From NCBI GenBank assembly GCA_001577185.1, contig LSCM01000002.1:1-27981 (forward strand): a stretch of 27,981 nucleotides of DNA, written 5' to 3'. A model generated the notes under the pieces. The model ran no database searches and had not been told where the DNA came from. It was given only the letters and a program-made list of their open reading frames with translations. The DNA is from Cloacimonetes bacterium TCS62 (lineage in GTDB: Bacteria > Cloacimonadota > Cloacimonadia > Cloacimonadales > TCS61). The position numbers and the translations under genes were made by a program. Below are positions 10,726 through 27,684 of the stretch, one piece after another (position 1 is the stretch's first letter; every line of letters begins with the position of its first letter).

Positions 10726-11988
10726 ATGGCAAAAGATAAAAAAAATCTTTTCGATAAAACTCTTAAAGATCTTAAAAAAATCGCTAAAGATTTGGATCTG
10801 GATGATATTAATAAACTTAATAAAAATGATTTGATACACAAGATCTTTGAGGTGAAAGCTATGCAAGAAGGCTTAGCTTTTATCTCCGGATGTTTAGAGA
10901 TAATGGATGATGGTTATGGTTTTATACGATTTATAAAGAATAATTATACCCACGGAAGAAGTGATGTCTATATGTCGAGTTCACAAATAAAACTCTTTAA
11001 TTTAAAAAAAGGAAATATTGTGTCCGGTCCGGCAAGAGCACCTAAGGATGACGAAAAATATTTTGCATTGATAAGAGTCGATTCTGTAAATTATGAAAAG
11101 CCGACTAAAATCCGTGAAGCTACTAACTTTTCAAGACTTACTCCATATTATCCTGAAGAAAGATTAAAATTAGAGACCAAAAAGGATCTTATGTCGACAA
11201 GGATTGTAGATCTTTTTACACCGATTGGTAAAGGTCAGAGAGGGGTGATAGTTGCAGCACCCAGAACAGGAAAAACCGTTCTAATGCAAAATATTGCTAA
11301 CGCAATTTTAACAAATCACAAAGAAACCTATGTAATTGTATTACTTGTAGATGAACGACCAGAAGAAGTAACCGAGATGAAGAAGATCTTAATTCCTGAG
11401 AATTCTGAGGTAGTCAGCTCTACCTTTGATGAGCAACCGCGTAACCATATTCAAGTAGCAGAAATGGTTATTGAAAAAGCAAAAAGAATGGTTGAACTAG
11501 GGAAGGATGTGGTTATTATGTTAGATAGTATCACGCGTCTTGCCCGAGCTTATAATATGGCTCAACCCTCTAGTGGAAGAGTGCTTTCCGGAGGTTTGGA
11601 TGCTGGCTCTTTACACCGTCCAAAGAAATTTTTTGGATCAGCAAGAAATACTTTGGAATCAGGTAGCTTAACAATTATCGCAACTGCTCTTGTAGATACA
11701 GGAAGCAGAATGGATCAAGTTATTTTTGAGGAATTCAAAGGTACTGGTAATATGGAGCTTGTGCTCGATCGCTCTATCAGTGATCTGCGGATGTATCCTG
11801 CTGTGGATCTCGTAAAATCTGGAACACGACGTGAAGAATTATTACTTACTAAGGAAGAAGTTCAGAGAATGTTCGTTCTAAGGCAGTTCTTAAAAGGGAT
11901 GAGTCCTCTTAAAGGTATTGAGATGCTCAAAAATAAGATGAAATCCACTAAGAATAATGCTGAATTCCTAAAGGTAATGAGTAAATAG
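10726..11988 (+). CDS. rho: Transcription termination factor Rho
   Basis: 420 aa. It has a Rho_N helix bundle ([30 protein letters not shown]), a cold-shock-like RNA-binding domain (GYGFIRF), Walker A AAPRTGKT, Walker [11 protein letters not shown] and the C-terminal [11 protein letters not shown] motif. Confidence 0.97.
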
Positions 11989-12025
11989 AAACTATAAGTT
12001 TTAAATTTCTGTAGGTATCAAGATA

Positions 12026-13228: not shown

Positions 13229-14163
13229 AAAATGTTATTATTCTCATAATTATTATTAACACTTCATTCAACTTACTAGCTAATTTAGCTGATGAATATC
13301 AAGATCTTAGATCCAGCAGCAATGATCCATTAAAATCCTATCTAGATTTTGCTGAAGAGCATTCCAATGAGATCTATGGACAAAAAGCGTTTTTAGAGGC
13401 TGCTAAAATAGAAATTTTAAGGAGAAATTATAATGATGCGATAAAATATCTGAATGAAGTGCATAATTCGGCTCTGAAAGAAAAGTATTTTTGGTTAGCA
13501 AAAACATATTTAAAAATAGATAAATACCATAAATCGATTATGTCATCGCAAGTTTATATTACCGATTCAGATAATCGTAATAAAATAGAAATTGCTTATT
13601 TTCTAATTGCTGAGGCCTATATACAAGAAGAAATGTATAAAAGAGCCTTAAGAACATTGGAAACATTAAAAACTTCGAAATATATAAATAATAATATTCC
13701 ATATCTTCATTTTAAAATCGGTAATTGTTATGAATTAATGGGAAGAACATCAGAAGCTTTGATGGCATATAAAAAATTAAAAGTAGATTTCCCATATACT
13801 CACTTAAGTTATTTAGCTGAAGATAGATTGATCGAAATAGCTGAAACTGAAAATTTACCTACAATAAAATCTCAGGCTGATATTCATAATGGACAGAGAA
13901 AACAGATTTCAAAATCTGCTAAAGGTGAAGATATGAAAATATATTTACAAATAGGTGCCTTTAATTCTGAACAAAATGCTAAATTACTCAACCTTAAAGT
14001 TGGGAATTATGGCTATGAAACAGTTATTTTCTCCAAGATTAAAAATAATACTAAATTTTATGTAGTTGCTGTTGGTCCTTTCGAAGATGATGCTAATTTG
14101 AAAAAAGCATCAAAGATCTTGAAAGAAAATAACTTGGCTTCCTTTGTTATTAAAAGATACTAA
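13225..14163 (+). CDS. TPR-like repeat protein with a C-terminal SPOR (peptidoglycan-binding) domain
   Basis: 312 aa. It has an N-terminal hydrophobic anchor or signal and helical repeat segments (AKIEILRRNYNDAIKYL.., IGNCYELMGRTSEALMAYKKL). The C-terminal YLQIGAFNSEQNAKLL....FYVVAVGPFEDDANLKKASKIL matches the SPOR pattern. Its start overlaps the upstream stop as ATGA. Confidence 0.75.
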   Translation: MKNVIILIIIINTSFNLLANLADEYQDLRSSSNDPLKSYLDFAEEHSNEIYGQKAFLEAAKIEILRRNYNDAIKYLNEVHNSALKEKYFWLAKTYLKIDKYHKSIMSSQVYITDSDNRNKIEIAYFLIAEAYIQEEMYKRALRTLETLKTSKYINNNIPYLHFKIGNCYELMGRTSEALMAYKKLKVDFPYTHLSYLAEDRLIEIAETENLPTIKSQADIHNGQRKQISKSAKGEDMKIYLQIGAFNSEQNAKLLNLKVGNYGYETVIFSKIKNNTKFYVVAVGPFEDDANLKKASKILKENNLASFVIKRY

Positions 14164-14164
14164 T

Positions 14165-16792
14165 ATGGCCGAAAAGAAAAAACTTACACCAATGTTAAAA
14201 CAATTTGTCAATATCAAAGAAAAGCATCCAGACAAATTCATTTTATTCAGAATGGGTGATTTTTATGAAACATTCTTTGATGATGCAAAAAAAGCCGCCA
14301 AAATTTTAGGGATAACATTAACCGCTCGGGATAAAAAAGCTGAAAATCCAATTCCTTTAGCTGGGTTTCCATATCATGCATTAGATAACTATTTAGATAA
14401 ACTTGTAAAACGAGGTGAAAAAGTAGTAATATGCGAACAGCTAGAAGATCCCAAAAAGGCAAAAGGTATTGTAAAAAGAGGGATTGTAGATATTATAACC
14501 CCGGGCTCTATCCTCGATGGAAAATTGATAAATCAATTCGATCATAATTTTTTAGCAGCAGTTTATTTACCAAAAAATAAAAAAGTATACGGTTTTTCAA
14601 TAATAGATATTTCTACTGGTGATTTTCGCTTCACTGAAGTTAACGAGAAAATGTTATTGAATGAAATCCAAAGAAATAAACCTTCTGAAATCATTGTTGA
14701 TAATGAAGCAAGTAAGAAATACATCTCAGAATTCAAAATGGATTATGAACCTACAATAACTATTTATGAAAGTTGGTTTTTTGATCATGATGAAGCAAAG
14801 AAAATACTAAAAAAACATTTTGGTACAACAACTTTAGAAGGGTTTGGGGCAAAAGACCGAAAAACCGGAACAACTGCTGCAGGAATTGCCCTAGGTTATG
14901 TAAAATCATTAAAGAATGGTGAATTAAAACATATAAGTAAGTTGCAGCACTATGCGATCAGTGATTTTATGCAATTAGATGAAATATCTAGAAGAAATCT
15001 TGAACTAAATAGATCGATACGTTACGGTACAGATTTTGGAACATTAGCTAAAAGTATTGATAAAACAAAAACTCCTATGGGTGCTCGCAAGTTAAATGAT
15101 TGGATGCTGAATCCTTTGCTCAACAAACAAATGATAGAAAAACGCTCTGGAGCAGTGGAAGCTTTAATAGAGAAATTTTCATTTACAATTGAACTTCGAG
15201 AGATATTAAAATCAATTGGAGATCTTAGTCGAATAATTAGTAAGATAGGTTCACTTAGAGCTAATCCTAGAGATATGATCGCACTAATTAATTATCTGCA
15301 AACATCACCTTCAATATCAGAAATTTTAGATAAATTTGATGATGTATTATTAGATTCTCTGAAAGACCAAATTGAAGATTATACTAGTATTCAAAATTTG
15401 ATAGATAGTGCCATTATAGAAGAAGCCCCGACCCAGATTACGGATGGTGGAGTTATAAAAGAAGGTTATAATGATGATTTAGATGATCTTAGGGAAGTTA
15501 GTAAAAATGGCAAGAGTTGGATTGCAAAACTTGAGAAAGAGGAAAAAGACAAAACTGGAATATCTTCATTGAAAGTAAGCTATAATAAAGTTTTTGGTTA
15601 TTACATTGAAGTAACTAAAACGCATAAAGATAAAGTTCCAGAATATTACATTAGAAAGCAGACTTTAGTTAATTCCGAAAGATATATAAGCCCCAAGTTA
15701 AAAGAATATGAAGCAAAAGTTTTAGGTGCAGAAGAGAGGATCAAAAATCTTGAATATGAACTTTTTGTGGAGATCAGAAAGAAACTCTATGAAAAAGTTG
15801 AATTTATGCAGAAGTTTGTGGTAGTTGTAACAAAGCTGGATGTATTAAGTAATTTTGCTTTTATAGGTCATAATAGGAATTATACAAAACCTCAGTTTAA
15901 TGATGAATTTGAATTGGAAATTAAGAATAGTAGACATCCGGTTATTGAATTGATCCTTGAGGATGAAGAATTTATCCCAAATGATGTGAATATGGACAAT
16001 AAAAATAATTTGATAACTTTATTAACAGGTCCAAATATGGCAGGGAAGTCTACATACTTAAGACAAATCGGATTATTAGCGATCATGGCTCAAATGGGAA
16101 GTTTTATCCCTGCAGAATCAGCAAATATGCCAATATTTGATAAAGTTTTTACACGTGTGGGAGCTTCGGATAATTTAGCCATGGGGCAGAGTACCTTCTT
16201 GGTTGAGATGATCGAAACTGCAAACATCTTAAATTCTGCTACTCCACGCTCATTGATCTTACTTGATGAGATTGGAAGAGGAACTAGTACATTTGATGGG
16301 CTGAGTTTGGCTTGGGCAATTGTGGAACATATTCACAATAATTCCAACATTTCAGCTATGACACTATTTGCTACCCACTATCATGAACTTACCGAATTAG
16401 AAAATATCCTCACAAAAGTGAAAAATTATAATATCCTGGTCAAAGAATGGAATGATGAAATAATATTTCTGAGGAAAATTGAACGAGGGTGTGCAGATCA
16501 GAGCTATGGAATACAAGTAGCTCGTTTAGCCGGTGTTCCACAAAAAGTTATTAATAGAGCAAAACAGATATTACAGAATTTAGAGGAGCACGAACTTAGT
16601 CCGCAGGGACTTTCTGCTAATGCTAAAAAATCGCTAGTTACAAATGCATCTCAAATGGATATTTTTGATGCTATTATAGAAAAATCTGATAAAAAAGATA
16701 AAATTCTCCAGCAGATAAAAGAGTTAGATGTAAATAATCTAACTCCGATAGAAGCAATAAAAAAACTGTCAGAATTGCAAGATAAATTATGA
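14165..16792 (+). CDS. mutS: DNA mismatch repair protein MutS
   Basis: 875 aa counted from the ATG at 14165 (MAEKKKLTPMLKQF; the track's start at 14144 is a TTG overlapping the upstream gene). Landmarks are the mismatch-binding FRMGDFYETFFDDA, Walker A GPNMAGKST, and DEIGRGTSTFDG and ATHYHEL. Confidence 0.97.
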   Translation: MAEKKKLTPMLKQFVNIKEKHPDKFILFRMGDFYETFFDDAKKAAKILGITLTARDKKAENPIPLAGFPYHALDNYLDKLVKRGEKVVICEQLEDPKKAKGIVKRGIVDIITPGSILDGKLINQFDHNFLAAVYLPKNKKVYGFSIIDISTGDFRFTEVNEKMLLNEIQRNKPSEIIVDNEASKKYISEFKMDYEPTITIYESWFFDHDEAKKILKKHFGTTTLEGFGAKDRKTGTTAAGIALGYVKSLKNGELKHISKLQHYAISDFMQLDEISRRNLELNRSIRYGTDFGTLAKSIDKTKTPMGARKLNDWMLNPLLNKQMIEKRSGAVEALIEKFSFTIELREILKSIGDLSRIISKIGSLRANPRDMIALINYLQTSPSISEILDKFDDVLLDSLKDQIEDYTSIQNLIDSAIIEEAPTQITDGGVIKEGYNDDLDDLREVSKNGKSWIAKLEKEEKDKTGISSLKVSYNKVFGYYIEVTKTHKDKVPEYYIRKQTLVNSERYISPKLKEYEAKVLGAEERIKNLEYELFVEIRKKLYEKVEFMQKFVVVVTKLDVLSNFAFIGHNRNYTKPQFNDEFELEIKNSRHPVIELILEDEEFIPNDVNMDNKNNLITLLTGPNMAGKSTYLRQIGLLAIMAQMGSFIPAESANMPIFDKVFTRVGASDNLAMGQSTFLVEMIETANILNSATPRSLILLDEIGRGTSTFDGLSLAWAIVEHIHNNSNISAMTLFATHYHELTELENILTKVKNYNILVKEWNDEIIFLRKIERGCADQSYGIQVARLAGVPQKVINRAKQILQNLEEHELSPQGLSANAKKSLVTNASQMDIFDAIIEKSDKKDKILQQIKELDVNNLTPIEAIKKLSELQDKL

Positions 16793-17271: not shown

Positions 17272-17299
17272 AAAAAAACCGAAGTTTGCACTTCGGTTT
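17272..17299. terminator. Bidirectional Rho-independent terminator (HU operon on the minus strand, mutS/DUF523 run on the plus strand)
   Basis: AAACCGAAGT (17276-17285) pairs with ACTTCGGTTT (17290-17299) around the loop TTGC. The A-run at 17272-17278 gives a 7-T tail on the minus strand. On the plus strand the stem is followed by a T-rich stretch. Confidence 0.8.
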
Positions 17300-17305
17300 A
17301 TTACT

Positions 17306-17401
17306 TTATTTATTTTTCTTTTTATGCCGATTCTTGCGGCTTCTTTTCTTACGTTTATGCTTTGATATTTTTTTACGTTTTCTTTTTTTTCCACTTGGCA
17401 T
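17306..17401 (-). CDS. 31-aa hyperbasic small protein, bS22-like (AURKAIP1/COX24-type) candidate ribosomal protein
   Basis: This ORF is not in the supplied track. I translated it by hand as ATG(17401)..TAA(17306) = MPSGKKRKRKKISKHKRKKRSRKNRHKKKNK. The ATG is 15 nt downstream of the HU stop and is preceded by GAGGGAAGG (SD). The terminator above follows it immediately. The MPSGKKRKR..HKRKK..RKNRHKKK pattern matches my memory of the small bS22-type proteins of Bacteroidota and Actinobacteria. Confidence 0.6.
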   Translation of the reverse strand: MPSGKKRKRKKISKHKRKKRSRKNRHKKKNK

Positions 17402-17747: not shown

Positions 17748-17776
17748 TTTGTTTAAAAATAGGTTTTACCTGTCAA
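17748..17776 (-). promoter_or_regulatory. Putative promoter of the HU operon
   Basis: On the minus strand, GTTCTTGACA contains TTGACA at 17771-17776, about 58 nt upstream of the ATG. The -10 is unclear: a 17-nt spacer gives AACAAA. Confidence 0.3.
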
Positions 17777-17917
17777 GAACTTTCTTCGTAACCCTATCAA
17801 AATAAGAATGTTACAAGTTTTTGGATAAATTGCTCTAGAAATATTTAGCTCGAGTGAATTATTAACTTCTTTTATCCTACCTGAAAATCTGTTATGCTCA
17901 AAGCCGTTAATTATTCA

Positions 17918-17946
17918 TTGACAGTAGAAAAGTAAAATATTTTTTG
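17918..17946 (+). promoter_or_regulatory. Putative promoter of the oxidoreductase / ether-lipid gene string
   Basis: TTGACA lies at 17918-17923 (CATTGACA), 54 nt upstream of the 17977 ATG, in a 263-nt divergent intergenic region. No convincing -10 hexamer sits at 17-nt spacing. Confidence 0.25.
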
Positions 17947-17976
17947 AATAAGTTTAGAAAGGAGTTATAAAGAAAT

Positions 17977-19011
17977 ATGAATGTTATTAAATTTGGTTTG
18001 ATTGGTTGTGGTAGAATTTCTGTAAAACACTGTGAAGCAATAGAGAAGATCGATAATGCAAAGATCGTTACATGTGCGGATATTATAGAAAAACGTGCTT
18101 CAGAAACTTCGGAAAAGTTTAATATTAAAACTTATTACAAAGATTATAAGACAATGTTGGAAAATGAAGATATTGATTGTGTTCTGATTTGTACTCCAAG
18201 TGGGCTACATCCACAAATGGCTGTAGAAGCTGCAGATAGAAAAATCAATATTGTTACAGAAAAACCAATGGGAATTGATCTAAAATCTGCTGATGAAATG
18301 GTGCAAGCTTGTGATGAAAACGCTGTTGAATTATTTGTAGTAAAACAAAATCGTTTGAATCCTCCCATTCAACTGCTAAAGAAGGCAATTGATAAAAATA
18401 GATTTGGTAGGTTGTTCAGTGCAAATATCACAGTCCGTTGGACTAGACCACAAGAATATTATGATATGGCAAAATGGCGTGGTACTTGGGAGTTTGATGG
18501 TGGTGCTTTTATGAATCAAGCTTCACATTATTTTGATCTTATGCAATGGTTAATGGGTCCTGTTGATTCTGTGATGTCATTTACCGCGACTAATAATCAT
18601 AAGATAGAAACTGAAGATCAAGGTGCTGGTATTATTCACTTTCGAAATGGTGCAATTGGAGTAGCGGATGTAACGATGAATACGTATCCAAAGAATTTAG
18701 AAGGCTCGATTACAATTATGGGTGAAAATGGAACTGTTAAGATTGGTGGGATTGCTGTAAATAAAGTAGTTCACTGGGAGTTTAAAGAGTATGATGATGA
18801 TGATAAATTGATCGAGACATCGAATTCTGATCCAACCAGTGTTTATGGCTTCGGACACTTAGGATATTTACAGAATGTTGTAGATGTATTAAATGGACAG
18901 GATACTCCAAATACGGATGGACGCAGTGGAAGAAAATCATTGGAGCTTATTCTAGCATTATACAAGTCAGCTAAGATCGGTCAAAAAGTTGCATTACCAT
19001 TGAAGATTTAA
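17977..19011 (+). CDS. Gfo/Idh/MocA family NAD(P)-dependent oxidoreductase (WbpB / sugar-nucleotide or inositol dehydrogenase-like)
   Basis: 344 aa. It has an N-terminal Rossmann motif (KFGLIGCGRIS), the EKPM motif (VTEKPMG) and a C-terminal alpha/beta domain (WRGTWEFDGGAFMNQASHYFDLMQWL). An AAAGGAG SD lies at 17958-17964. Confidence 0.85.
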   Translation: MNVIKFGLIGCGRISVKHCEAIEKIDNAKIVTCADIIEKRASETSEKFNIKTYYKDYKTMLENEDIDCVLICTPSGLHPQMAVEAADRKINIVTEKPMGIDLKSADEMVQACDENAVELFVVKQNRLNPPIQLLKKAIDKNRFGRLFSANITVRWTRPQEYYDMAKWRGTWEFDGGAFMNQASHYFDLMQWLMGPVDSVMSFTATNNHKIETEDQGAGIIHFRNGAIGVADVTMNTYPKNLEGSITIMGENGTVKIGGIAVNKVVHWEFKEYDDDDKLIETSNSDPTSVYGFGHLGYLQNVVDVLNGQDTPNTDGRSGRKSLELILALYKSAKIGQKVALPLKI

Positions 19012-19029: not shown

Positions 19030-19917
19030 TTGTTAGTTCAAGAATATTTTAAATCTAGAAAAGAAATTCTCGAAGATGCTTTGGAAAAATATTTAGCTCC
19101 CTCTGATACTTATCCATCTGAGTTAAATAAGGCAATAAGATATAGTGTATTTAGTGATGGTAAGAGATTAAGACCGATTATCTTCTTTGCGACTTATGAG
19201 ATGCTGATCGGTCGTAAGAACATTAGTCGTTTAAGACGATTATTACCAGCTGCTTGTGCATTGGAATTGGTTCATACTGCATCCTTGATACATGATGATC
19301 TACCTAGTGTAGATAACTCTGATGAACGGAGAGGAAAACCGAGTTGTCATGTAAAATTTGGAGAAGCTACAGCCATTTTAGCTGGGGATGCACTGATCAC
19401 AAAATCGATAGAGATCTTAACCAAATTAAAAAATAAAAAAGAAGCTATCAAATCTATTGAGATATTAACAAGAGCAATTTCAACTCGTGGAATGATCGGT
19501 GGACAAGCTGTTGATATAATCTCAGCAAAAAAGAAAACGACTAAAAGTACATTGCGTTATATCCATTTGAAAAAAACAGGTTCTTTATTACAAGCAGCAA
19601 CTGAATTAGCCTGTATGTTCCAAAAAGCAGAAAATAATTTGCGCATTACTTTGGGTAATTTTGCTCTTAACTTAGGGTTAGCTTATCAAATCGTTGATGA
19701 TATTCTTGATGAAGTAGGTAGCTTTGAAGTTCTGGGAAGACAACCAGGAGGAGATTCGAAAAACAAGAAAGCGACTTATCCCTCTCTATTTGGTTTAGAA
19801 AAATCAAAGAAGAAAGCTGAAAAACTTTTAAGAGATTGTTATAATGCAGTCAAGAATATAAAAAACAATGAGATTTTACTAGAATATGTTAATATGATTA
19901 AAGAACGTTTACCATAA
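19030..19917 (+). CDS. Polyprenyl diphosphate synthase, probably geranylgeranyl diphosphate (C20) synthase
   Basis: 295 aa. It has a TTG start with an AAAGGAG SD at 19017-19023. The first Asp-rich motif, with the bacterial-type insertion, is LIHDDLPSVDNSDERRG; the second is QIVDDILD. KRLRP and GQ..D are also present. Small residues (Ala84, Ser85) sit at positions -5/-4 before the first motif. Confidence 0.85.
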   Translation: MLVQEYFKSRKEILEDALEKYLAPSDTYPSELNKAIRYSVFSDGKRLRPIIFFATYEMLIGRKNISRLRRLLPAACALELVHTASLIHDDLPSVDNSDERRGKPSCHVKFGEATAILAGDALITKSIEILTKLKNKKEAIKSIEILTRAISTRGMIGGQAVDIISAKKKTTKSTLRYIHLKKTGSLLQAATELACMFQKAENNLRITLGNFALNLGLAYQIVDDILDEVGSFEVLGRQPGGDSKNKKATYPSLFGLEKSKKKAEKLLRDCYNAVKNIKNNEILLEYVNMIKERLP

Positions 19918-19919: not shown

Positions 19920-20744
19920 ATGTCTTATTTGAGGATATTAAGACCATTAAATTGTCTCTTTGTTTTTGTAACAGTCCTTTGTGGCGCTTTCATCCAAGCA
20001 TACACTTACAAAGTTTTCCCGGTTATTTTTTCTGCTATCTCCGCTATGCTGATCGCAGGTGCAGGATATGTCATTAATGATTATTTTGATTATCCAATTG
20101 ATAAGATAAATAAACCATTTAGAGTACTGCCCAGCAAAAAGATCAGTTTGAAAAGAGCATATTTCTATGCAGTTGCCCTTTTTGTTTTAGGAATTGTATT
20201 CTCTTTTTTTACTTATAGAATTGAATGCGTAATTATAGCAATAATAAATACTTTTGTACTGTTTACTTACGCAAAAAAATACAAATTTACTCCACTGATT
20301 GGTAATTTACTTGTATCTTATGCGGCTGCAAGTACTTTTGTTTATGGAGGTTTGAGTAATCATAATTTGAAGAATAGTTTGATAATAGCCTTTTTTGCTT
20401 TTTTATATACTTTGATTAGAGAATTGGTAAAAGATTGTGAGGATATTGATGGAGATAACAAGTTTAATGCTAGAACATTAGCGATAGAAGTTGGCAAAAA
20501 AAAAACTATTTTAATTAGCATTATACCCGGTTTATTTATTTTTGCTTTCAACTATTATTTGTTCCTCTCTGGGAATTTCTCAAAGATAACATTTATCTTT
20601 ATGAATTTGCTTGTAATTGTTCCTCTAATCTATTTTATAGTTACATTGTTAAAAAATATTAAAAAAAAAAATCTCTCACGAATTTCGAAGTTAATTAAGA
20701 TTGATATGTTAATTTTATTAATAATTTTATGGTTTGGGAAGTAA
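19920..20744 (+). CDS. UbiA-family membrane prenyltransferase, digeranylgeranylglyceryl phosphate (DGGGP) synthase-like
   Basis: 274 aa, multi-pass hydrophobic. The two Asp-rich UbiA motifs are YVINDYFDYPIDKINKPFRVLPS and LVKDCEDIDGDNKFNARTLAIEVG. It lies between a GGPP-type synthase and a GGGP synthase, with gaps of 2 nt and 1 nt. The superfamily call is firm; the DGGGPS-specific assignment rests on motif form and context. Confidence 0.75.
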   Translation: MSYLRILRPLNCLFVFVTVLCGAFIQAYTYKVFPVIFSAISAMLIAGAGYVINDYFDYPIDKINKPFRVLPSKKISLKRAYFYAVALFVLGIVFSFFTYRIECVIIAIINTFVLFTYAKKYKFTPLIGNLLVSYAAASTFVYGGLSNHNLKNSLIIAFFAFLYTLIRELVKDCEDIDGDNKFNARTLAIEVGKKKTILISIIPGLFIFAFNYYLFLSGNFSKITFIFMNLLVIVPLIYFIVTLLKNIKKKNLSRISKLIKIDMLILLIILWFGK

Positions 20745-20745: not shown

Positions 20746-21492
20746 ATGAAAACTTATAGAAAACTAGTTTCATTAGCAAAGAAAAGAGCTAATTATTTTT
20801 GTTTGATCGATCCTGATAAAATGGATAAAAAAGAATCTGTTAAATTTGCTAAAAATTGCGAGAAGAATGGTGCTGACGGTATTTTAGTGGGTGGAAGCTT
20901 GATGATAAATAACAATTTTGAACCAAATTTAAAGATGATCAAAAAAAGCGTTAACATTCCTGTTCTTATTTTTCCTGGAATCTTTAATTTTGTTTCTCCT
21001 TATGCAGATGCGTTATTATTGCTCAGTGTCATTACAAGCAGGAATCCACAAATGTTGATCGGTGAACAAGTTCGTGCTGCCCCATTGATCAAACATTACG
21101 ATTTGGAAGCAATTGGCACAGCATATATGTTGATCGAATCTGGTAATCATACATCTGTTAATTTTATGAGTGGAAGCATGCCATTACCAAGGAATAAAAA
21201 TGATATTGCGGTTTCTCATGCTTTAGCTGGGCAATATCTGGGGATGAACCTTATCTATCTGGATGCAGGTAGCGGAGCAAAATATTCGGTAAGTAATAGT
21301 ATGATTTCAGCTATCCGCAAAAATGTGTCATTACCAATTTTCTTAGGTGGTGGTATAAAAACTCCAGAAGAAGCAGCGCAAAAAGCTAGAGCTGGTGCGG
21401 ACTTTATAGTAACAGGTAATATCCTGGAAGATAATAATGATCCTAAGTTGATTAAAGAATTTGCAGATGCAGTGCATCAAGTAAAACGTTGA
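20746..21492 (+). CDS. Geranylgeranylglyceryl phosphate synthase (GGGPS / PcrB family)
   Basis: 248 aa counted from the ATG at 20746 (the track's TTG at 20734 overlaps the upstream gene). TIM-barrel family landmarks are CLIDPDK, GADGILVGGS, IPVLIFPG, LIYLDAGSGA and LGGGIKTPEEAAQKARAGADFIVTGN. Confidence 0.88.
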   Translation: MKTYRKLVSLAKKRANYFCLIDPDKMDKKESVKFAKNCEKNGADGILVGGSLMINNNFEPNLKMIKKSVNIPVLIFPGIFNFVSPYADALLLLSVITSRNPQMLIGEQVRAAPLIKHYDLEAIGTAYMLIESGNHTSVNFMSGSMPLPRNKNDIAVSHALAGQYLGMNLIYLDAGSGAKYSVSNSMISAIRKNVSLPIFLGGGIKTPEEAAQKARAGADFIVTGNILEDNNDPKLIKEFADAVHQVKR

Positions 21493-22283
21493 TGATTGAT
21501 ATTCATACACATATCCTGCCCAATATTGATGATGGTTCCAAAGATTTAAAGACATCGCTCAGACAATTGGAACTGATGAGAAAAAACGGAACTATGAAAG
21601 TAGTTTGCTCACCACATTTTCTTAGGAACACATTTCATAATACTGCCGATAAAATTGATAAAAAATTTAAGAAGTTACAAAATGCAGTAAATAAAGAAAA
21701 TATCGATATCAAGCTTGTTAAAGGTGTGGAGTTATATTTGGATGATAAAGCATTGGAAACTATTCAAAGTGAAAGATTTTGTATTGAGAATACAGATTAT
21801 ATTCTAGTAGAAACATCTATGACACAGTTTCCTGCAGATCTTTATGAGATCCTTTATCAGCTGGTTAAGGCTGGGTACAAACCGATCATGGCACACCCGG
21901 AAAGATATGGCTCGATAATAAATGATAACGATCTGGCAGAAGATCTAATGTATAAAAATGTTTATTTGCAAATGAATGCAGGAAGTTTATTTGGACAATA
22001 TGGGAAAAAAGTAAAAAAAACAGCCTGGAATTTATTAGAAAAAGGATATGTTCATTTCCTAGCCTCAGATAATCATTGCAATAATAATGAATATAATCTA
22101 CAAAAGGCTTATGAAATTATTGCTGAATATATTGATGAATTTACTGCAAAATTATTAACCAAGGTTAATCCTGAAAAGATGTTGAAAAATGAGATAATTG
22201 ATTACTTCTATCTTGATTCAATGGAAATAGAATATAAAAACATATTCCATAAATTTATCAGTAAAATAAAGAAAATCTTATGA
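21492..22283 (+). CDS. PHP-domain metal-dependent phosphoesterase (CpsB/YwqE-like)
   Basis: 263 aa counted from the ATG at 21492, which shares its A with the GGGPS stop (TGATG). The N-terminal MIDIHTHILPNIDDGSKDL, plus SPHF, AHPERY and ASDNH, are the His/Asp metal ligands typical of CpsB-type PHP phosphatases. Confidence 0.8.
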   Translation: MIDIHTHILPNIDDGSKDLKTSLRQLELMRKNGTMKVVCSPHFLRNTFHNTADKIDKKFKKLQNAVNKENIDIKLVKGVELYLDDKALETIQSERFCIENTDYILVETSMTQFPADLYEILYQLVKAGYKPIMAHPERYGSIINDNDLAEDLMYKNVYLQMNAGSLFGQYGKKVKKTAWNLLEKGYVHFLASDNHCNNNEYNLQKAYEIIAEYIDEFTAKLLTKVNPEKMLKNEIIDYFYLDSMEIEYKNIFHKFISKIKKIL

Positions 22284-23254
22284 AAAAAATTTTGATAACT
22301 GGTAGTAGTGGATTTATTGGTAGGAATGTAACAAAAAAGCTTGCTAAACAAAATTATGATATTACAGCGATCATTCGGCCGGAAACAGATTCAAATAGAA
22401 TTCAAGGATTCGCTGATTCTATACGTTTTGAAGAGATCAATCTAGCACGAATAAATTCATTAAGAAATTTTCTTTCAAATAATTCTTTTGATTTAATATA
22501 TCATATCGGGGCACTTCGGGGTGGAAGAAAATTTTCAAAACAGGATTTTTATACTACGAATGTAAAAGCCACAGAGCAGATAATTATTTCAGCTTTAAAA
22601 AATAATACTAAGCTTATATTTTGCTCTTCTGTGGGAATATTTGGAGCAATACCGTATCGATTACCAGCTGACAATAATACAAAACGGAAAGCAGATAATT
22701 ATTATCATTACACAAAGATTCAAGCAGAGAAATTGATCCAAAAATATGTCAAGCAAGGACTGAATGCTGTAATCGTGCGTCCTTCAATTACTTATGGAAC
22801 AGGTGATTACGGATTCCCCTATACATTAACAAAATTAATAGATAAAAAACTTTTGTTCTTATCAAAACAAAAGATAAAAATCCACCTTACAAATATTGAT
22901 TTTCTTTCTGATGTGTTCACCCAGTTAGCGAAGTATCAAATAAGTTCAGGTAGATCTTATATTGTTGCAGATGCAAAACCAGTTGAGATCCACGAACTTG
23001 CAGATTTTATTAATAATGAAATTAATAATACTGATTATCCCAAATATAAGAATATCAACAGAAAATTTTTTCGTTTAGGAGAATCAATCTCAAGACTTCT
23101 TGGTAGTGAACTTTGGACTTCAAGATTTGAGCTCATATCAAGAGATTGGTTCTATAAGATAGATGATGTTCAAAACGATTTTGATCTTAAACTTCCAAAT
23201 ACAATTCCTGCTTTTAAGATCGTAACAAATTGGTACAAGAAGGAAGACAGATAA
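22280..23254 (+). CDS. NAD-dependent epimerase/dehydratase family (extended SDR) protein
   Basis: 324 aa. It has the Rossmann motif KILITGSSGFIGRNV and the catalytic YxxxK (YHYTKIQAEK). Its start overlaps the upstream stop (ATGA). Confidence 0.85.
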   Translation: MKKILITGSSGFIGRNVTKKLAKQNYDITAIIRPETDSNRIQGFADSIRFEEINLARINSLRNFLSNNSFDLIYHIGALRGGRKFSKQDFYTTNVKATEQIIISALKNNTKLIFCSSVGIFGAIPYRLPADNNTKRKADNYYHYTKIQAEKLIQKYVKQGLNAVIVRPSITYGTGDYGFPYTLTKLIDKKLLFLSKQKIKIHLTNIDFLSDVFTQLAKYQISSGRSYIVADAKPVEIHELADFINNEINNTDYPKYKNINRKFFRLGESISRLLGSELWTSRFELISRDWFYKIDDVQNDFDLKLPNTIPAFKIVTNWYKKEDR

Positions 23255-23256
23255 GT

Positions 23257-24093
23257 ATGGCTATACCTATTATTCAGAATTGGAAAAATTACTTCAAAGA
23301 TCCTGATGAAGGACTAGGCTCTTCTTACGAGAGAGTTATCCTCAATGGAAAATTAGTTCAGATCTGTAAATATTTTGAGGCAAAGAATATTTTGGAAGTT
23401 CCAAGTTTTGGATTCACAGGTGTCTCTGGTATCAATAGTATGGAACTTGCAAAAAGAGGATATGATGTGACTATTGTAGATCATGATAAAAATCGCCTAA
23501 AACAAATTAATGATCTTTGGGCGGATCTAGAGTATAAACTTATTTCGAAATTTATAATAGACTATTTTTTTCTACCTTTTGATAATAATGCGTTTGATCT
23601 AAGTTGGAATTTTTCTGCGCTATGGTTTACCAAAGATCTGGAAAAATTCTTAGCTGAACTATCTAGAGTTACAAAAAAGGTGATCTTTCTTTGCGTACCA
23701 AATAGATCCGGTTTAGGTTATTTAAGTCAAAAGTATTTTGGGAAAGATTATCTTAATAAAAATGTGTTTGAAGAAAATATAAAACCAAAAAATATAAAAA
23801 AGACGATGAAAAAATTGGATTGGCAATTGATTAGTTCGAACTTTATTGATTGTCCACCTTGGCCTGATATTGGTATGCCTAAGGAAAAATTTCTCAATAA
23901 GTTTGGTCTAAATTCAAGGCAAAAAGAAAAGAAAAGAAAATCGATTTCGATTTTAAAGTATTATCAGGGTGAGGATGAAAACTTTCCTGCAAAAATGATG
24001 AAATATTCATGGTTAGAGACTTATGCACCATCGTTCATCAAGTATTTTTGGGCTCATCACAAATATTTTTTATTTATACCAAAAGGAAAATGA
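23257..24093 (+). CDS. Class I methyltransferase-fold protein (degenerate SAM motif I)
   Basis: 278 aa counted from the ATG at 23257, 2 nt after the upstream stop and preceded by AGGAAG. Motif order resembles Methyltransf_11: ILEVPSFGFTGVSG (motif I-like), YDVTIVDHD (post-I acidic), FDLSWNFSALWF and KKVIFLCVPN. The Gly-rich loop is atypical, so the function is uncertain. Confidence 0.5.
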   Translation: MAIPIIQNWKNYFKDPDEGLGSSYERVILNGKLVQICKYFEAKNILEVPSFGFTGVSGINSMELAKRGYDVTIVDHDKNRLKQINDLWADLEYKLISKFIIDYFFLPFDNNAFDLSWNFSALWFTKDLEKFLAELSRVTKKVIFLCVPNRSGLGYLSQKYFGKDYLNKNVFEENIKPKNIKKTMKKLDWQLISSNFIDCPPWPDIGMPKEKFLNKFGLNSRQKEKKRKSISILKYYQGEDENFPAKMMKYSWLETYAPSFIKYFWAHHKYFLFIPKGK

Positions 24094-24115
24094 TAAATTT
24101 TTTGAGGTTATATTT

Positions 24116-24313
24116 ATGAAGATTAAGTTTTTTTTAAAAGCATCTATCCCGTTCGGTATTATTTTGTTTTGCTTATATTTTTTTATTCCCTTTTTTAGAA
24201 GAGGCCAAACACTTACGCAAATTGTAATTAAGGTGATAGTTACTGCCGTAGTTTATGGTATAGTAATGTTACTAATTAGAAAGAAAAAAAATAATTCAGA
24301 TGAAAATGAATAA
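24116..24313 (+). CDS. 65-aa two-helix membrane peptide, unknown function
   Basis: Counted from the ATG at 24116 (MKIKFFLKASIPFGIILFCLYFFIPFF..VIKVIVTAVVYGIVMLLIRKKK), with GAGG upstream. The track's upstream extension overlaps the previous gene. It has two hydrophobic segments and a basic tail. Confidence 0.5.
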   Translation: MKIKFFLKASIPFGIILFCLYFFIPFFRRGQTLTQIVIKVIVTAVVYGIVMLLIRKKKNNSDENE

Positions 24314-25307
24314 AGATAAGATCAATTGGCTTTTAGGTATTTCTCTGGGAATAATATTTCTTATTGCCTGGATTCATATTGTAGATTGGCATGAATTTGT
24401 AAGTTATTTTGAAGAGTTCAGGCTAACTTATGTAGTATTTTTTTCTATATTTTATATCATAGCTTATTTTTTCCGTAGTTGGCGCTGGAAAATAATTATG
24501 AAACCGATCTTTAAGATGACTTTTTATGAGAGTTTTAGGCTTTTTATGACTGGTTTGATGGTTAATTATCTGATTCCAGTACGGGCTGGAGAACTTTCCA
24601 AATCGTTAATATTAAAGAATAAACATAATGTTCGAATATCTAAAAGTTTACCAACAGTTTTTCTTGATAAAATTACTGATCTTTTTCCGATAATAATTAT
24701 CATGATATTGATCCCGCAGATTTCAATTCAGCTAAATGTTACTTTAAAGCTCATTATTAGTGCTCTCTTATTGATATTCTTGCTCTTTATAGGATTTTTA
24801 TTCTTTGCTGTAAGTCATAAGAAAAAAGCAACTTCGTTTCTACATTCTCTTTTGAAAATATTACCTTCAAAATATAGACGAAAATTGGAAGATTTCTTTA
24901 CAAATTTTGTTGAAGGTATGGGAATTATGCGGAACCGAATTGCAGACAATATCAAAGTATATCTACTTACAATTTTAGCTGTATTTTCTGAAGCAATTTA
25001 TATTTATGCAGTATTTCATGCTTTTGGTTCAACTATTTCTTACCCCAAAATTTTATTTGGTTATACATTGATGAATCTTACGTACATACTACCAACACCA
25101 CCTGCTCAAATAGGTTCTAACCAATTTATGTGGGTATTGATCTTTGGTTATGCTCTAGGAGCTAATGAAAATTTAACAAGTGCTGCTGTCACATTTTCGC
25201 ATCTTCTAACTACGATCTGGATCTTTTTGATTGGGGTGATATCATTGATTACATTAAAACTGGATTTTTATGAAATAGTTAAATTAAAAAATAATGAGGT
25301 AATATGA
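24300..25307 (+). CDS. UPF0104 / lysyl-phosphatidylglycerol-synthase-TM-region-like (flippase-like) integral membrane protein
   Basis: 335 aa, about 8 hydrophobic segments. The family-typical FRSWRWKIIM and YLIPVRAGELSK motifs are present. It overlaps the 65-aa ORF by 14 nt. No C-terminal aminoacyl-transferase domain is present. Confidence 0.7.
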   Translation: MKMNKDKINWLLGISLGIIFLIAWIHIVDWHEFVSYFEEFRLTYVVFFSIFYIIAYFFRSWRWKIIMKPIFKMTFYESFRLFMTGLMVNYLIPVRAGELSKSLILKNKHNVRISKSLPTVFLDKITDLFPIIIIMILIPQISIQLNVTLKLIISALLLIFLLFIGFLFFAVSHKKKATSFLHSLLKILPSKYRRKLEDFFTNFVEGMGIMRNRIADNIKVYLLTILAVFSEAIYIYAVFHAFGSTISYPKILFGYTLMNLTYILPTPPAQIGSNQFMWVLIFGYALGANENLTSAAVTFSHLLTTIWIFLIGVISLITLKLDFYEIVKLKNNEVI

Positions 25308-26284
25308 AGAATATTGAAATTTTAGATACGTTATCAGAAACTAGAGGTAAAATCGAAAAGGAGATCAAGAAAGTTATTATTGGGCAAGATGAAATAGTGG
25401 AACAGGTTTTGATTGCACTATTTGCTGATGGTCATTGTCTCATCGAAGGAGTTCCCGGATTAGCTAAAACATTAATGATATCAGCTTTGGCCAAAATACT
25501 CAACATGAAATTCAGTAGAATTCAATTTACACCTGATCTAATGCCTTCTGATATTACCGGGACTGATATTTTGGCAGAAAACAAGGCAGATGGTAAAAGA
25601 TACTTCGAATATATAAAAGGTCCTGTCTTTTCCAATATAATTTTAGCTGATGAGATCAATCGTACACCACCTAAAACTCAAGCAGCTTTGCTGCAAGCTA
25701 TGCAAGAAAGAGAGGTGACTGCAGGGAATAATACCTATAAATTGGATAAACCATTCTTGGTTTTAGCTACACAAAATCCAATTGAACAAGAGGGAACTTA
25801 TCCACTACCAGAAGCTCAATTAGATAGATTTATGTTTTACTTAAATATTAATTATCCCTCCCATGAGGAAGAGAAAGAAATAGTTAAGATAGATAAAAAA
25901 GCCTTTCATACATTACAACCTGTAATTGAGAAAAATTTAATTAATACTATACAAAAAACGATATCTGAAATACCGATAAGTGATCATGTGCTGGAGTTTG
26001 CTGTAAAACTTTCTAGAGCTACACGCCCTCAAGATCCACAATCCCCAGAATTTATAAAAAAATGGGTCAACTGGGGAGCTGGACCGCGAGCATCACAATT
26101 TCTTGCTATTGCTGCTAAAACTCGTGCTGCTCTTAATGGTAATCTTACACCTTCTATTGAAGATGTGAAGAAAGTAGCTGTGATCGTGTTACAGCATCGC
26201 ATTATTGTTTCTTTTGCAGCTGAAACGGAGGGATTATCTTCTAAAAATATCATTGACAAACTTATATCAATATTAAATAAATAA
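25304..26284 (+). CDS. MoxR-family AAA+ ATPase
   Basis: 326 aa. It has Walker A EGVPGLAKT, Walker B and sensor ILADEINRTPPKTQAALLQAMQEREVT, and VLATQNPIEQEGTYPLPEAQLDRF. Its start overlaps the upstream stop (ATGA). Confidence 0.92.
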   Translation: MKNIEILDTLSETRGKIEKEIKKVIIGQDEIVEQVLIALFADGHCLIEGVPGLAKTLMISALAKILNMKFSRIQFTPDLMPSDITGTDILAENKADGKRYFEYIKGPVFSNIILADEINRTPPKTQAALLQAMQEREVTAGNNTYKLDKPFLVLATQNPIEQEGTYPLPEAQLDRFMFYLNINYPSHEEEKEIVKIDKKAFHTLQPVIEKNLINTIQKTISEIPISDHVLEFAVKLSRATRPQDPQSPEFIKKWVNWGAGPRASQFLAIAAKTRAALNGNLTPSIEDVKKVAVIVLQHRIIVSFAAETEGLSSKNIIDKLISILNK

Positions 26285-26343
26285 AATATTTGCTATATCT
26301 CAAAATTTTAATATATTTTAGTTAATTAAATCAAGGAGTCAAT

Positions 26344-26799
26344 ATGAAAAATATCAAAGAGAAATACGCAGATTTAAGCTCAAAGATTTATAAAATGTGC
26401 AATAGAAAGCAACTCATAAGGAGACGATGTCTGAATTTAGGCAAAATGGAATGTAAAATGTTAGATTTCCTTCATTCTGTAGATAAGCCAATTTGCATGA
26501 ATGAATTATCTAAAGAAATGGAAGTTTCAAATAGCAGAATCACCCGCATTATTGATGCGTTAGTTGCAAAAGAATATGTTTATAGATTTCCTTCTAAAGA
26601 AGATAGAAGAAGCTGGCTGGTTAATATTACAGATAGCGGTAGAGAAATGCATGAAATTGTAAGTAAAGATTTTTTAGATCTGCAAGCAAAACTGATCGCA
26701 TCATTACCTGAACATAAAATAGAATCAATTCTAGAAGATTTAAATATTTATGTAAATGCGTATTTAAAAGCTATTAATGAGAGGGATAATGAGCAGTAA
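26344..26799 (+). CDS. MarR family transcriptional regulator
   Basis: 151 aa. It has a winged HTH (MNELSKEMEVSNSRITRIIDALVAKEYVYRFPSKEDRRSWLVNITDSG), an AAGGAG SD and several N-terminal cysteines. Confidence 0.85.
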   Translation: MKNIKEKYADLSSKIYKMCNRKQLIRRRCLNLGKMECKMLDFLHSVDKPICMNELSKEMEVSNSRITRIIDALVAKEYVYRFPSKEDRRSWLVNITDSGREMHEIVSKDFLDLQAKLIASLPEHKIESILEDLNIYVNAYLKAINERDNEQ

Positions 26800-27214
26800 A
26801 ACAGAAGTAAAATGGCTGGGTGATATGGCTTTTGATGTTGAATTGAACAATCATCATTTCACCATCGATGCTGACGAAAAAGTTGGAGGGCAAGATCAAG
26901 GACCACGTCCCAAAGGTCTTTTACTGAGTGGACTAGCTGGTTGTACAGGTATGGATGTAGTCTCTATTCTTAAAAAAATGAAAGTAAAGGATTACAAATT
27001 TACGATTGAAGTAGAGGGAAAATTAAAAAAGGAATTCCCAAAACCATATGAAAAAATTGTAACTCAATTTAATTTCAAAGGAAAAAATTTACCTAAGGAA
27101 AAGATCAAGAAAGCAGTAAAATTATCTGAGGAAAGATATTGTGGTGTTTCCGATATGCTTAAGAAAGCTGCTGAAATGAAAATCGAAATTAATATTAATG
27201 GAGAAAGAATATGA
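26789..27214 (+). CDS. OsmC family peroxiredoxin-like protein
   Basis: 141 aa counted from the ATG at 26789 (GAGGG SD at 26781-26785), overlapping the marR end by 11 nt. Both conserved Cys contexts are present: GLAGCTGMDV and EERYCGVSDML. Confidence 0.85.
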   Translation: MSSKTEVKWLGDMAFDVELNNHHFTIDADEKVGGQDQGPRPKGLLLSGLAGCTGMDVVSILKKMKVKDYKFTIEVEGKLKKEFPKPYEKIVTQFNFKGKNLPKEKIKKAVKLSEERYCGVSDMLKKAAEMKIEININGERI

Positions 27215-27684
27215 AAAAATTTGCAGTCGTACTTATAGTAACAATTGTGTCATTCTCAGTTGCATGTGGTCAAGATGAGGCTGTAAATAAAGAAAAGAAT
27301 TCCCCAATAAATTGGTTAATCAATCTTGAAGAAGCTCAAGAGATAGCTGAGACCGAAAATAAGCATGTATTTATCCACTTTACTGGCTCTGACTGGTGTG
27401 GATGGTGTATGAAGCTTAAAGATGAAATATATTCAAAACAACCTTTCATAGATTATGTCTCAGAAAATCTTGTTATGGTAAAGATAGATTTTCCCAAAAA
27501 GATCAAGCAGTCTGAGGAGATAAAACAATACAATAGATCATTAGCTCAGAAATATCAAATTCGGGGATTTCCTACTGTACTACTATTAAATCCAAATGGG
27601 GAAATCATTGGTAAAACTGGTTACCAAAGAGGTGGTTCAGAGAAATATGTTGAACATTTAAAAGAATTCATAAACAAGGAGTAG
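27211..27684 (+). CDS. Secreted/lipoprotein thioredoxin-fold protein (Thioredoxin_7-like, WCGWC active site)
   Basis: 157 aa. It has a signal peptide with a lipobox-like FSVAC|G, the redox motif HFTGSDWCGWCMKL and a cis-Pro region (IRGFPT). Its start overlaps the OsmC stop (ATGA). Confidence 0.8.
   Translation: MKKFAVVLIVTIVSFSVACGQDEAVNKEKNSPINWLINLEEAQEIAETENKHVFIHFTGSDWCGWCMKLKDEIYSKQPFIDYVSENLVMVKIDFPKKIKQSEEIKQYNRSLAQKYQIRGFPTVLLLNPNGEIIGKTGYQRGGSEKYVEHLKEFINKE

Follow-up and report, generated by a model that had tools for sequence, protein, structure and literature searches.

Active geranylgeranylglyceryl phosphate (GGGP) synthase (GGGPS) and digeranylgeranylglyceryl phosphate (DGGGP) synthase (DGGGPS) of Candidatus Cloacimonetes were reported by Villanueva et al. 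(ISME J 2020/21, PMC7852524), who found their genes co-localized with a polyprenyl synthase gene and detected environmental transcription of the three genes. In that work, the head groups were assumed to be added by the host enzymes CdsA, PgsA, and Pgp, and CarS and the sn-glycerol-1-phosphate (G1P) dehydrogenase were listed as missing. In this study, we analyzed a window of 27,981 nt from Cloacimonetes bacterium TCS62 (assembly GCA_001577185.1, contig LSCM01000002.1, positions 1–27,981 of the forward strand), which comes from the same phylum and whose core genes are orthologs of those three, with an identical gene order. Whereas only three genes are described in PMC7852524, the window adds a WlbA-like Gfo/Idh/MocA oxidoreductase gene (hereafter Gfo) at the front and six genes downstream, which encode a PHP phosphoesterase, an extended short-chain dehydrogenase/reductase (SDR), a protein with a methyltransferase fold (MT), a 65-aa peptide, a UPF0104 membrane protein, and a MoxR-type ATPase. 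Together these genes form a cassette of 9–10 genes and ~8.3 kb, from Gfo at position 17977 to the end of the MoxR gene at 26284. The six downstream genes (the tail) are the conserved 3′ half of this discrete and portable cassette, which has persisted both vertically and laterally in Cloacimonadota. The searched parts of the main text and supplements of PMC7852524 do not mention the six downstream genes or the WlbA-like gene with the cluster. In our literature search, only the co-localization of the GGGPS, DGGGPS, and polyprenyl synthase genes was reported; none of the papers found describes the downstream genes, treats the cassette as one unit, or presents the MT-fold family. We regard the tail as a real, conserved, and undescribed extension of the known bacterial ether-lipid cluster, with predicted roles in finishing (tailoring) and export.

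Other described systems resemble the cassette in part. In Bacillus subtilis and in Halobacteria (acetyl-archaeol), the products of PcrB/GGGPS enzymes (HepGP, GGGP, and DGGGP) are dephosphorylated by an unidentified phosphatase and then acetylated at the head group (PMC9179154). Dephosphorylation followed by dedicated tailoring of the free glycerol hydroxyls is the same logic as that proposed below for PHP and then SDR and MT. However, the tailoring enzyme in the PcrB pathway is the acetyltransferase YvoF, whereas the cassette contains no acetyltransferase and has the SDR, the MT-fold protein, a flippase-like protein, and MoxR. Since the phosphatase of the PcrB pathway is unidentified, no homology to PHP can be claimed.

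The closest parallel is the hopanoid trio HpnA (SDR), HpnB (family 2 glycosyltransferase, GT2), and HpnL (PF03706), in which an extended SDR and a protein of the UPF0104/LPG_synthase_TM family likewise occur in an isoprenoid-lipid gene cluster; a GT2 also accompanies the SDR–MT pair in clusters outside Cloacimonadota. The functions of the three Hpn proteins are likewise unestablished (PMC12583986). The window proteins score far below the respective cutoffs (HpnA, 78.7 vs 367.65 bits; HpnL, 15.7 vs 195.65), the MT-fold partner, PHP, and MoxR have no counterparts in hpn clusters, and the lipid predicted for the cassette would be a glycerol ether instead of a hopanoid.

Extent and conservation of the cassette

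The window was compared by tblastn with the GGGPS loci of species-representative genomes, 62 loci in all, including 59 of the Cloacimonadota type (~58 related species), and presence was counted only at loci whose contig extends to the expected gene position. The order Gfo-GGPPS-DGGGPS-GGGPS-PHP-SDR-MT-UPF0104-MoxR, where GGPPS denotes the gene for geranylgeranyl diphosphate (GGPP) synthase, is kept almost everywhere among the related loci. SDR, MT, and MoxR were found beside GGGPS at every covered locus (49/49, 43/43, and 36/36, respectively), PHP at 52 of 53, and UPF0104 at 35 of 39. By these presence counts, the tail is linked to GGGPS more faithfully than DGGGPS is (48/53). GGPPS is present at 47 of 52 loci and Gfo at 35 of 46. 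The flanking genes gave 30/40 (HU), 28/35 (MarR), and 28/34 each (OsmC and the thioredoxin-like protein). All close relatives are from metagenome-assembled genomes of Candidatus Cloacimonadota, and the MT-fold protein has an exact match in assembly GCA_001577125.1, on a contig with the same downstream genes.

The nine-gene block is not bound to one genomic context. It lies between a prepilin peptidase gene and the gene for an FG-GAP/ASPIC protein at two loci (L148 and L149), and between an Rnf operon upstream and DUF3108/CNNM genes downstream at a third (L150); these three loci hold the most divergent PHP relatives (39–41% identity). The same block is thus found in at least three unrelated neighborhoods. 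Reduced forms also exist. Four Cloacimonadales genomes (L051–L054), including the complete chromosome OY771587.1 (L054), have GGGPS-PHP-SDR-MT-MoxR by an IS200-like transposase gene. Two loci (L153 and L058) have GGGPS with the full tail, and at another (L152) an orthologous GGPPS (61% identity) is followed directly by PHP-SDR-MT-UPF0104-MoxR. Locus L151 is similar to the last, with only the 3′ end of the prenyl synthase gene on its contig (38% identity). From these reduced forms, the tail PHP-SDR-MT-(UPF0104)-MoxR behaves as a sub-module. It adjoins an isoprenoid gene at every locus where it was found, and MoxR closes the block in every form, reduced ones included. On OY771587.1, GNAT and IS200-like transposase genes (8570–9830) stand in place of Gfo-GGPPS-DGGGPS, directly 5′ of the block.

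The six genes could simply be co-transcribed neighbors, held together within one phylum by genomic inertia and functionally unconnected with the ether lipid. Most of the evidence for PHP, UPF0104, and MoxR is indeed synteny within a single phylum-level lineage, the unrelated neighbors HU and MarR-OsmC-thioredoxin are often conserved too, and the GGGPS loci of Bacteroidota have none of the six genes, their neighbors being PPTase, PnuC, an AAA_28 protein, and a TonB receptor. However, the tail is linked to GGGPS more tightly than either the flanks or DGGGPS, the overlaps at its junctions are conserved, and the SDR–MT pair independently joins prenyl synthase/UbiA clusters elsewhere. Because the block is intact in unrelated contexts, we consider pure hitch-hiking quite unlikely.

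The junctions are as tight as the first-pass annotation of this DNA had stated, and all six were confirmed by direct reading of the sequence. The GGGPS stop codon TGA (21490–21492) and the PHP start codon ATG (21492–21494) overlap as TGATG, and an ATGA is shared by PHP and SDR (22280–22283) and again by UPF0104 and MoxR (25304–25307). There are gaps of 2 nt between the SDR stop at 23254 and the MT ATG at 23257, and of 22 nt between the MT stop at 24093 and the ATG of the small open reading frame (ORF) at 24116, which has GAGG 8 nt on its 5′ side. The small ORF ends at 24313 and overlaps the UPF0104 gene by 14 nt if the latter starts at ATG 24300 or by 8 nt if it starts at 24306; both starts are used in public gene calls. 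Farther upstream, DGGGPS stops 1 nt before the GGGPS ATG. The packing leaves no room for terminators, and no terminator-like hairpin was found on the + strand between 17977 and 26284.

Distances were determined at about 32–57 related loci per junction. The GGGPS–PHP junction has a median of −1 nt and overlaps at 53 of 57 loci, and the medians for PHP–SDR, SDR–MT, and UPF0104–MoxR are −8, 12, and 8 nt, respectively; that for Gfo–GGPPS is 13 nt (40 loci with both genes). Cassette junctions in the relatives overlap or are shorter than 30 nt. Their conservation across related loci indicates that the tight packing is more than chance. The gap between MoxR and MarR exceeds 100 nt in 30 of 30 relatives (median, 319), and therefore the unit ends at MoxR and MarR-OsmC-thioredoxin is a separate neighbor. 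In the window the two genes are just 59 nt apart, a distance at which read-through could occur.

With all genes on the same strand, short or overlapping junctions, no internal intrinsic terminator, and a block that is kept when its flanks change, the cassette is predicted to be a single operon with one transcript. The first-pass annotation had placed the six genes in one unit with the ether-lipid core and had proposed to look for their synteny with GGGPS in relatives, where it is indeed kept. Co-inheritance and tight packing in ~58 species and several neighborhoods support the single unit, but it starts at the WlbA-like gene and not at GGGPS. Of the six-gene set, PHP, SDR, MT, and MoxR are kept in the relatives, but the 65-aa peptide is optional and UPF0104 has been lost in L051–L054. 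The spacer 5′ of Gfo (Table 1) is likely the promoter region, a role suggested by its position. A promoter scan gave 43 sites against 55.5 ± 8.6 expected and is uninformative in this AT-rich DNA. The spacer has no Rfam match, and the Rfam scan found no riboswitch or leader 5′ of the cassette.

Predicted proteins of the cassette

The domain assignments of the first-pass annotation agree with our Pfam and NCBIfam scans, and were refined here for PHP (CpsB/YwqE family), for the MT loop, and for the 65-aa peptide (two predicted transmembrane (TM) helices). Likewise, its statement that the six genes do not match the canonical archaeal downstream steps holds, as the Pfam and NCBIfam scans of the six proteins gave no CarS, CDP-alcohol phosphatidyltransferase, or geranylgeranyl reductase (GGR).

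Among the core enzymes, GGPPS scores 290.9 bits with the FPPsyn model for farnesyl diphosphate (FPP) synthases (cutoff, 275) and 255.6 bits with the CrtE-type GGPP synthase model. The best NCBIfam family of DGGGPS, which has eight hydrophobic segments, is geranylgeranylglycerol-phosphate geranylgeranyltransferase (209.6 bits, below the cutoff of 296); its best families are all of the DGGGPS type, each below the equivalog cutoff. GGGPS exceeds the curated cutoffs of NF003198 (277.3 bits; cutoff, 247) and TIGR01769 (216.1 bits; cutoff, 161.55). Like their Cloacimonetes orthologs, for which both activities were shown (PMC7852524), the window enzymes are predicted to form GGGP and DGGGP.

The best PDB matches of the Gfo protein are 3q2i and 3q2k (E 3e-113, 339 residues), which we take to be WlbA UDP-GlcNAcA 3-dehydrogenases. 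WlbA-type enzymes recycle their bound NADH by reducing a small keto acid. The activity of WlbA/WbpB enzymes is described in PMC10622841. An ether-lipid cassette is here headed by the gene for a putative nucleotide-sugar-type dehydrogenase, for which a role in the conversion of dihydroxyacetone phosphate (DHAP) to G1P is conceivable. Gfo was set aside as a candidate for the missing G1P dehydrogenase on account of its match to 3q2i/3q2k and its absence from 11 of 46 loci, and it is retained only as a low-probability rival.

PHP shares the fold, the family, and the metal- and phosphate-binding motifs of the CpsB/YwqE manganese-dependent protein-tyrosine phosphatases: it matches YwqE in the PDB (3qy6, E 4e-30) and keeps DIHTH (DxHxH), HPER, and SDNH. 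Its nearest relative outside the lineage is a Clostridium YwqE (39% identity). PHP could therefore be a genuine protein-tyrosine phosphatase that controls a bacterial tyrosine kinase (BY-kinase) or a phosphorylated pathway enzyme and does not act on lipids, as its family score (Table 1) and these similarities would suggest. However, it falls below the Cps4B equivalog cutoff (NF041488, 139.5 vs 400 bits), no BY-kinase, CpsC/CpsD-type, or capsule gene was found in the 28-kb window or the related loci examined, and strict translational coupling to a lipid synthase would be unusual for a regulator. A purely regulatory role is thus, in our estimate, very unlikely. No PHP–GGGPS fusion protein was found among the best 120 PHP relatives. 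At one locus (L035, 10891–11869), GGGPS is followed by genes for a membrane protein of 77 aa and a phosphatase of the PP2C family, so that another kind of phosphatase takes the position of PHP. PHP, SDR, and MT have no TM segments.

The SDR keeps the motifs GSSGFIG (GxxGxxG) and Y142-x3-K. Its best NCBIfam matches, HpnA and OleD-type reductases, are all below their cutoffs, and it matches nucleotide-sugar enzymes over the N-terminal Rossmann half only. At L032, L040, and L043, two tandem SDR genes lie between PHP and MT. In the L040 pair (11496–13484), which was read in detail, the ortholog of the window SDR has LITGLNNQVDL and no GxxGxxG, and an intact second SDR comes next; this may be a pseudoenzyme with its replacement.

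The MT-fold protein belongs to a small, distinct family. When 1.84 billion cluster representatives were searched exhaustively, only 302 family representatives were returned at E ≤ 1e-3, with near-full-length matches. The family keeps the following residues invariant: EGxG close to the N terminus, L-E-x-P-x2-G-x2-G-x2-G, one Asn, D-x-P-P-W-P-D, one Glu, and His-His at the C-terminal end. The second of these replaces the canonical motif I (E/D-x-G-x-G-x-G), and most members retain an acidic residue that follows strand 2. The first-pass annotation had called this S-adenosylmethionine (SAM)-binding loop degenerate, a description that the family alignment contradicts, since the loop is an invariant variant motif of the family and not a product of decay. 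The AlphaFold2 model (pLDDT 90.8) has a class I methyltransferase fold, and a Foldseek search gave a probability of 1.0 to TleD, RebM, and the FPP and geranyl diphosphate (GPP) C-methyltransferases, among others, at TM-scores of only ~0.5. The nearest solved structures are small-molecule methyltransferases, including the prenyl/terpenoid C-methyltransferases TleD and BezA and those for FPP and GPP. The protein may catalyze a methyl transfer, which would probably be SAM-dependent, and its His/Asp/Glu set is a candidate metal site.

SDR and MT are a predicted functional pair. Six family representatives are SDR::MT fusions with the two parts in the order of the window genes; one MT::DUF362 (P0196) and one MT::GT2 (P0254) fusion were also found. 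The fusion P0126 is 32% identical to residues 1–312 of the window SDR and 45% identical to the window MT, both over the full length, and its locus encodes a radical SAM/SPASM protein, the SDR::MT fusion, a GT2, an FPP/GGPP synthase, another GT2, a UbiA protein, a GGR-family flavoprotein, and a Wzx-like flippase. A second SDR::MT fusion locus has a similar arrangement. On a contig labeled Calditrichaeota (L066), an unfused SDR–MT pair (48% and 54% identity) lies by two GT2 genes, a PMT_2-type GT-C gene, a prenyl synthase gene, and a UbiA gene. In Cloacimonadota, the slot between SDR and UPF0104 always holds a member of the MT family. At L006, L031, L050, L056, and L057 the occupant is of another subfamily (27–37% identity to the window protein), with SDR and UPF0104 still orthologous; displacement within the family with the slot always filled argues for selection on function at that position. 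At the divergent locus L058, a protein with DUF362 and 4Fe-4S ferredoxin domains is encoded between MT and UPF0104 (13627–14745). This insertion and the fusion P0196 suggest that DUF362 may be another occasional partner of the MT family.

A remote branch of the MT family (~35% identity) was sampled at 80 metagenome loci in a scan seeded with six sequences, and 49 loci were long enough for analysis. The flanking genes encode radical SAM/SPASM proteins at 29 loci, polyprenyl-phosphate-type GT2 at 16, and nucleotide-sugar SDRs at 14, in addition to GT-C-like membrane proteins (TMEM260/PMT and GT87). These neighbors bring in a serious alternative, in which the WlbA-like enzyme, the SDR, and the MT would make a modified (e.g., epimerized or methylated) sugar. 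A glycosyltransferase encoded elsewhere would add this sugar to the ether lipid, or the isoprenoid lipid would serve as a glycan carrier or anchor, with UPF0104 flipping the lipid-linked sugar and PHP acting as a capsule-type accessory phosphatase. The 3q2i/3q2k match of the first cassette gene, the epimerase/dehydratase fold of the SDR, the two GT2 genes and the Wzx-like flippase in the fusion-protein clusters, the MT::GT2 fusion, and the membership of PHP in the capsule-associated CpsB family are all consistent with such a glycoconjugate. However, no glycosyltransferase gene occurs in the Cloacimonadota cassette at ~60 loci, the WlbA-like gene is itself dispensable (11 of 46 loci are without it), the resemblance of the window SDR to nucleotide-sugar enzymes ends with the Rossmann half, and the usual partners of WlbA, an aminotransferase and an acetyltransferase, are absent from the window. 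Weighing both sides, we consider a sugar pathway rather unlikely.

The remaining tail proteins are two predicted membrane proteins and an ATPase. The 65-aa ORF is a genuine gene but an optional one: small ORFs occupy the gap between MT and UPF0104 at 17 of 41 loci, ~15 of these ORFs have two predicted TM helices, and the dN/dS ratios of the two sequence variants (0.27 and 0.45) indicate purifying selection. UPF0104 is over the cutoffs of both models of the MprF flippase domain, PF03706 (Table 1) and TIGR00374 (90.2 bits; cutoff, 43.2), and has at least six hydrophobic segments. As for MprF, the proposed role of this polytopic domain is to move a modified lipid across the membrane. Unlike MprF, the protein consists of the TM domain only, without a C-terminal aminoacyl-phosphatidylglycerol synthase domain, and it is missing from some cassette variants.

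MoxR has the Walker A motif GVPGLAKT and the Walker B motif ILADEINR. No VWA/DUF58 partner is encoded beside it; the next gene is MarR in the window and that of an FG-GAP/LVIVD repeat protein or an unrelated gene in other lineages. At L148/L149 (12720–15473), L151 (5215–6150), and L152 (9866–10816), the product of the gene after MoxR has beta-propeller repeats of the FG-GAP/ASPIC or LVIVD-like type. The MoxR also matches the Pfam bpMoxR model, which represents MoxR-vWA-beta-propeller systems, with 46 bits. There may be a MoxR/beta-propeller partnership in other lineages, which the window is without.

Genomic surroundings

The cassette lies among genes of other functions, including those for HU, which is divergent from the cassette, Rho, MutS, a TonB-dependent receptor, and a protein sorted by the type IX secretion system. 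On the 3′ side, a MarR regulator, an OsmC-like peroxiredoxin, and a secreted thioredoxin-like protein (26344–27684, + strand) form a tightly packed unit of their own, which is kept at 28 of 34–35 related loci and is absent where the cassette occupies another neighborhood. An extremely basic ORF of 31 aa, MPSGKKRKRKKISKHKRKKRSRKNRHKKKNK, lies on the − strand at 17306–17401, 15 nt 3′ of the HU gene, and is followed by a bidirectional terminator-like hairpin (17276–17299). It has no Pfam match and presumably resembles the lysine/arginine-rich THX-like or AURKAIP1/COX24-like small peptides of Bacteroidota. The only Rfam matches in the window are the 23S and 5S rRNA genes, and the window contains no tRNA gene.

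Table 1 Features of the TCS62 window, with the evidence for each assignment.
Feature	Position	Strand	Basis
23S rRNA gene, 3′ part (cut by window start)	1–1607	+	Rfam; bacterial
5S rRNA gene, complete	1676–1792	+	Rfam
Non-coding spacer between HU (divergent) and first cassette gene	17757–17976	+	Only sizeable non-coding gap 5′ of block
Gfo/Idh/MocA oxidoreductase, WlbA/WbpB-like; accessory first gene	17977–19011	+	Pfam GFO_IDH_MocA N- and C-terminal domains
Short-chain prenyl diphosphate (FPP/GGPP) synthase	19030–19917	+	PF00348, E 8e-56
UbiA-family DGGGP synthase homolog	19920–20744	+	PF01040, E 1.6e-35, 123 bits
GGGP synthase, PcrB family	20746–21492	+	PF01884, E 1.6e-45
PHP-fold metal phosphoesterase, CpsB/YwqE family	21492–22283	+	PF19567, E 8e-58, 196 bits (cutoff 27)
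Extended SDR, NAD(P)-dependent epimerase/dehydratase fold	22280–23254	+	PF01370, E 2e-31
MT-fold protein, small distinct family	23257–24093	+	Methyltransf_11, E 9e-10, 39.5 bits (cutoff 21.2)
65-aa two-TM peptide, optional member	24116–24313	+	Two hydrophobic segments
UPF0104/MprF-flippase-like polytopic membrane protein, 335 aa	24300–25307	+	PF03706, E 2e-37, 129.7 bits (cutoff 33.4)
MoxR-type AAA+ ATPase, last gene	25304–26284	+	AAA_3, E 2.5e-63, 212 bits; AAA_lid_2, 51.8 bits
3′ boundary spacer between MoxR and MarR-OsmC-thioredoxin unit	26285–26343		59 nt in window

Proposed pathway and its significance

We propose that a glycerol ether lipid is synthesized from GGPP by the cassette and is then finished by means of the tail genes, and we assign this reading a probability of about one half. 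GGPPS, GGGPS, and DGGGPS would build GGGP and DGGGP at the cytoplasmic face of the membrane. The soluble CpsB-type PHP, translationally coupled to GGGPS, would strip the phosphate from the isoprenoid-(glycerol)-phosphate, by analogy with the phosphatase step on the PcrB product in Bacillus. SDR and MT, as a two-enzyme unit, would then act on the exposed head group with a redox reaction and a methyl transfer, the latter probably dependent on SAM. UPF0104, at times with the two-TM peptide, would move the product across the membrane. In the weakest step of the scheme, MoxR would mature or remodel a metal enzyme or a membrane protein.

A phosphatase, an SDR, and a methyltransferase also act in series on an isoprenoid phosphate ester in the juvenile-hormone branch, where farnesyl diphosphate is converted to methyl farnesoate by a phosphatase, an SDR-type farnesol dehydrogenase, an aldehyde dehydrogenase, and a SAM methyltransferase. 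The likeness is an analogy only, and it fits the GGPPS-PHP-SDR-MT form of L152. However, the cassette contains no aldehyde dehydrogenase, occurs in other organisms, and includes a flippase-like protein and MoxR.

Several observations weigh against a finishing pathway for a glycerol ether lipid. By sequence, PHP is a good member of the CpsB/YwqE protein-tyrosine phosphatase family, for which no lipid substrate is known to us; it has neither their BY-kinase partner nor their capsule locus, however, and its gene is translationally coupled to that of a lipid synthase. Sugar chemistry, more than a direct modification of glycerol, is suggested by the WlbA-like gene, by the fold of the SDR, and by the GT2/GT-C neighbors of the remote MT members, and the cassette encodes neither a glycosyltransferase nor a CDP-alcohol transferase. 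For PHP, UPF0104, and MoxR, all of the evidence lies within a single phylum-level lineage. The head also occurs without the tail at its site in one genome (L035). Finally, no GGGPS lies within 7 kb of the tail at L152, and the actual substrate could therefore be something other than a glycerol ether. The persistence of that tail beside GGPPS suggests that the link is to GGPP-derived lipids in general, not strictly to glycerol ethers.

Alternatively, one or more of the accessory enzymes could supply GGGPS with its substrate, either through release of G1P by PHP, with a glycerophosphodiester as the source, or through reduction of DHAP with G1P stereochemistry by the SDR or Gfo protein. Cloacimonetes genomes have no egsA/araM, and the source of bacterial G1P is an acknowledged open question (Villanueva 2020, PMC7852524). 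A self-contained cassette with two NAD(P) oxidoreductases and a phosphoesterase would fit such a role, as would the coupling of PHP to GGGPS at most loci. However, the Gfo protein is dispensable and too close to the WlbA-type sugar dehydrogenases, the SDR is fused to MT-fold proteins and found in clusters without GGGPS, and the L152 tail stands beside GGPPS without GGGPS. The MT-fold protein, UPF0104, and MoxR would also be left without a role, and we regard substrate supply as unlikely to be the function of the accessory genes.

Returning to the finishing pathway, the cassette might hold the whole of a self-contained route to an undescribed class of bacterial isoprenoid lipid, in which the phosphate of a GGPP-derived glycerol ether is removed by a repurposed CpsB-type phosphatase, the SDR and MT oxidize and methylate the product, and a dedicated flippase exports it; an accessory enzyme may in addition close the G1P or head-group gap of these "lipid-divide" bacteria. 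This more specific proposal is tentative, and we would not put it forward as the probable outcome.

Cloacimonadota are the best-supported bacterial case for making archaeal-type ether lipids, and the final lipid, the source of G1P, and the addition of head groups are the gaps that the cassette may help to close. The five to six uncharacterized genes tied to GGGPS provide a short list of cloneable candidates, best suited to the finishing, modifying, or exporting steps, and the ~8.3-kb cassette fits the E. coli system already in use for the core enzymes. The analysis also defines a small, unannotated family with an MT fold, the motifs PxxGxxGxxG, DxPPWPD, and HH, and a clear genomic association. 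Other isoprenoid-lipid clusters also hold the SDR/MT pair, in some cases as a fusion; if the proposed function is true, this family would tailor isoprenoid lipids in several phyla.

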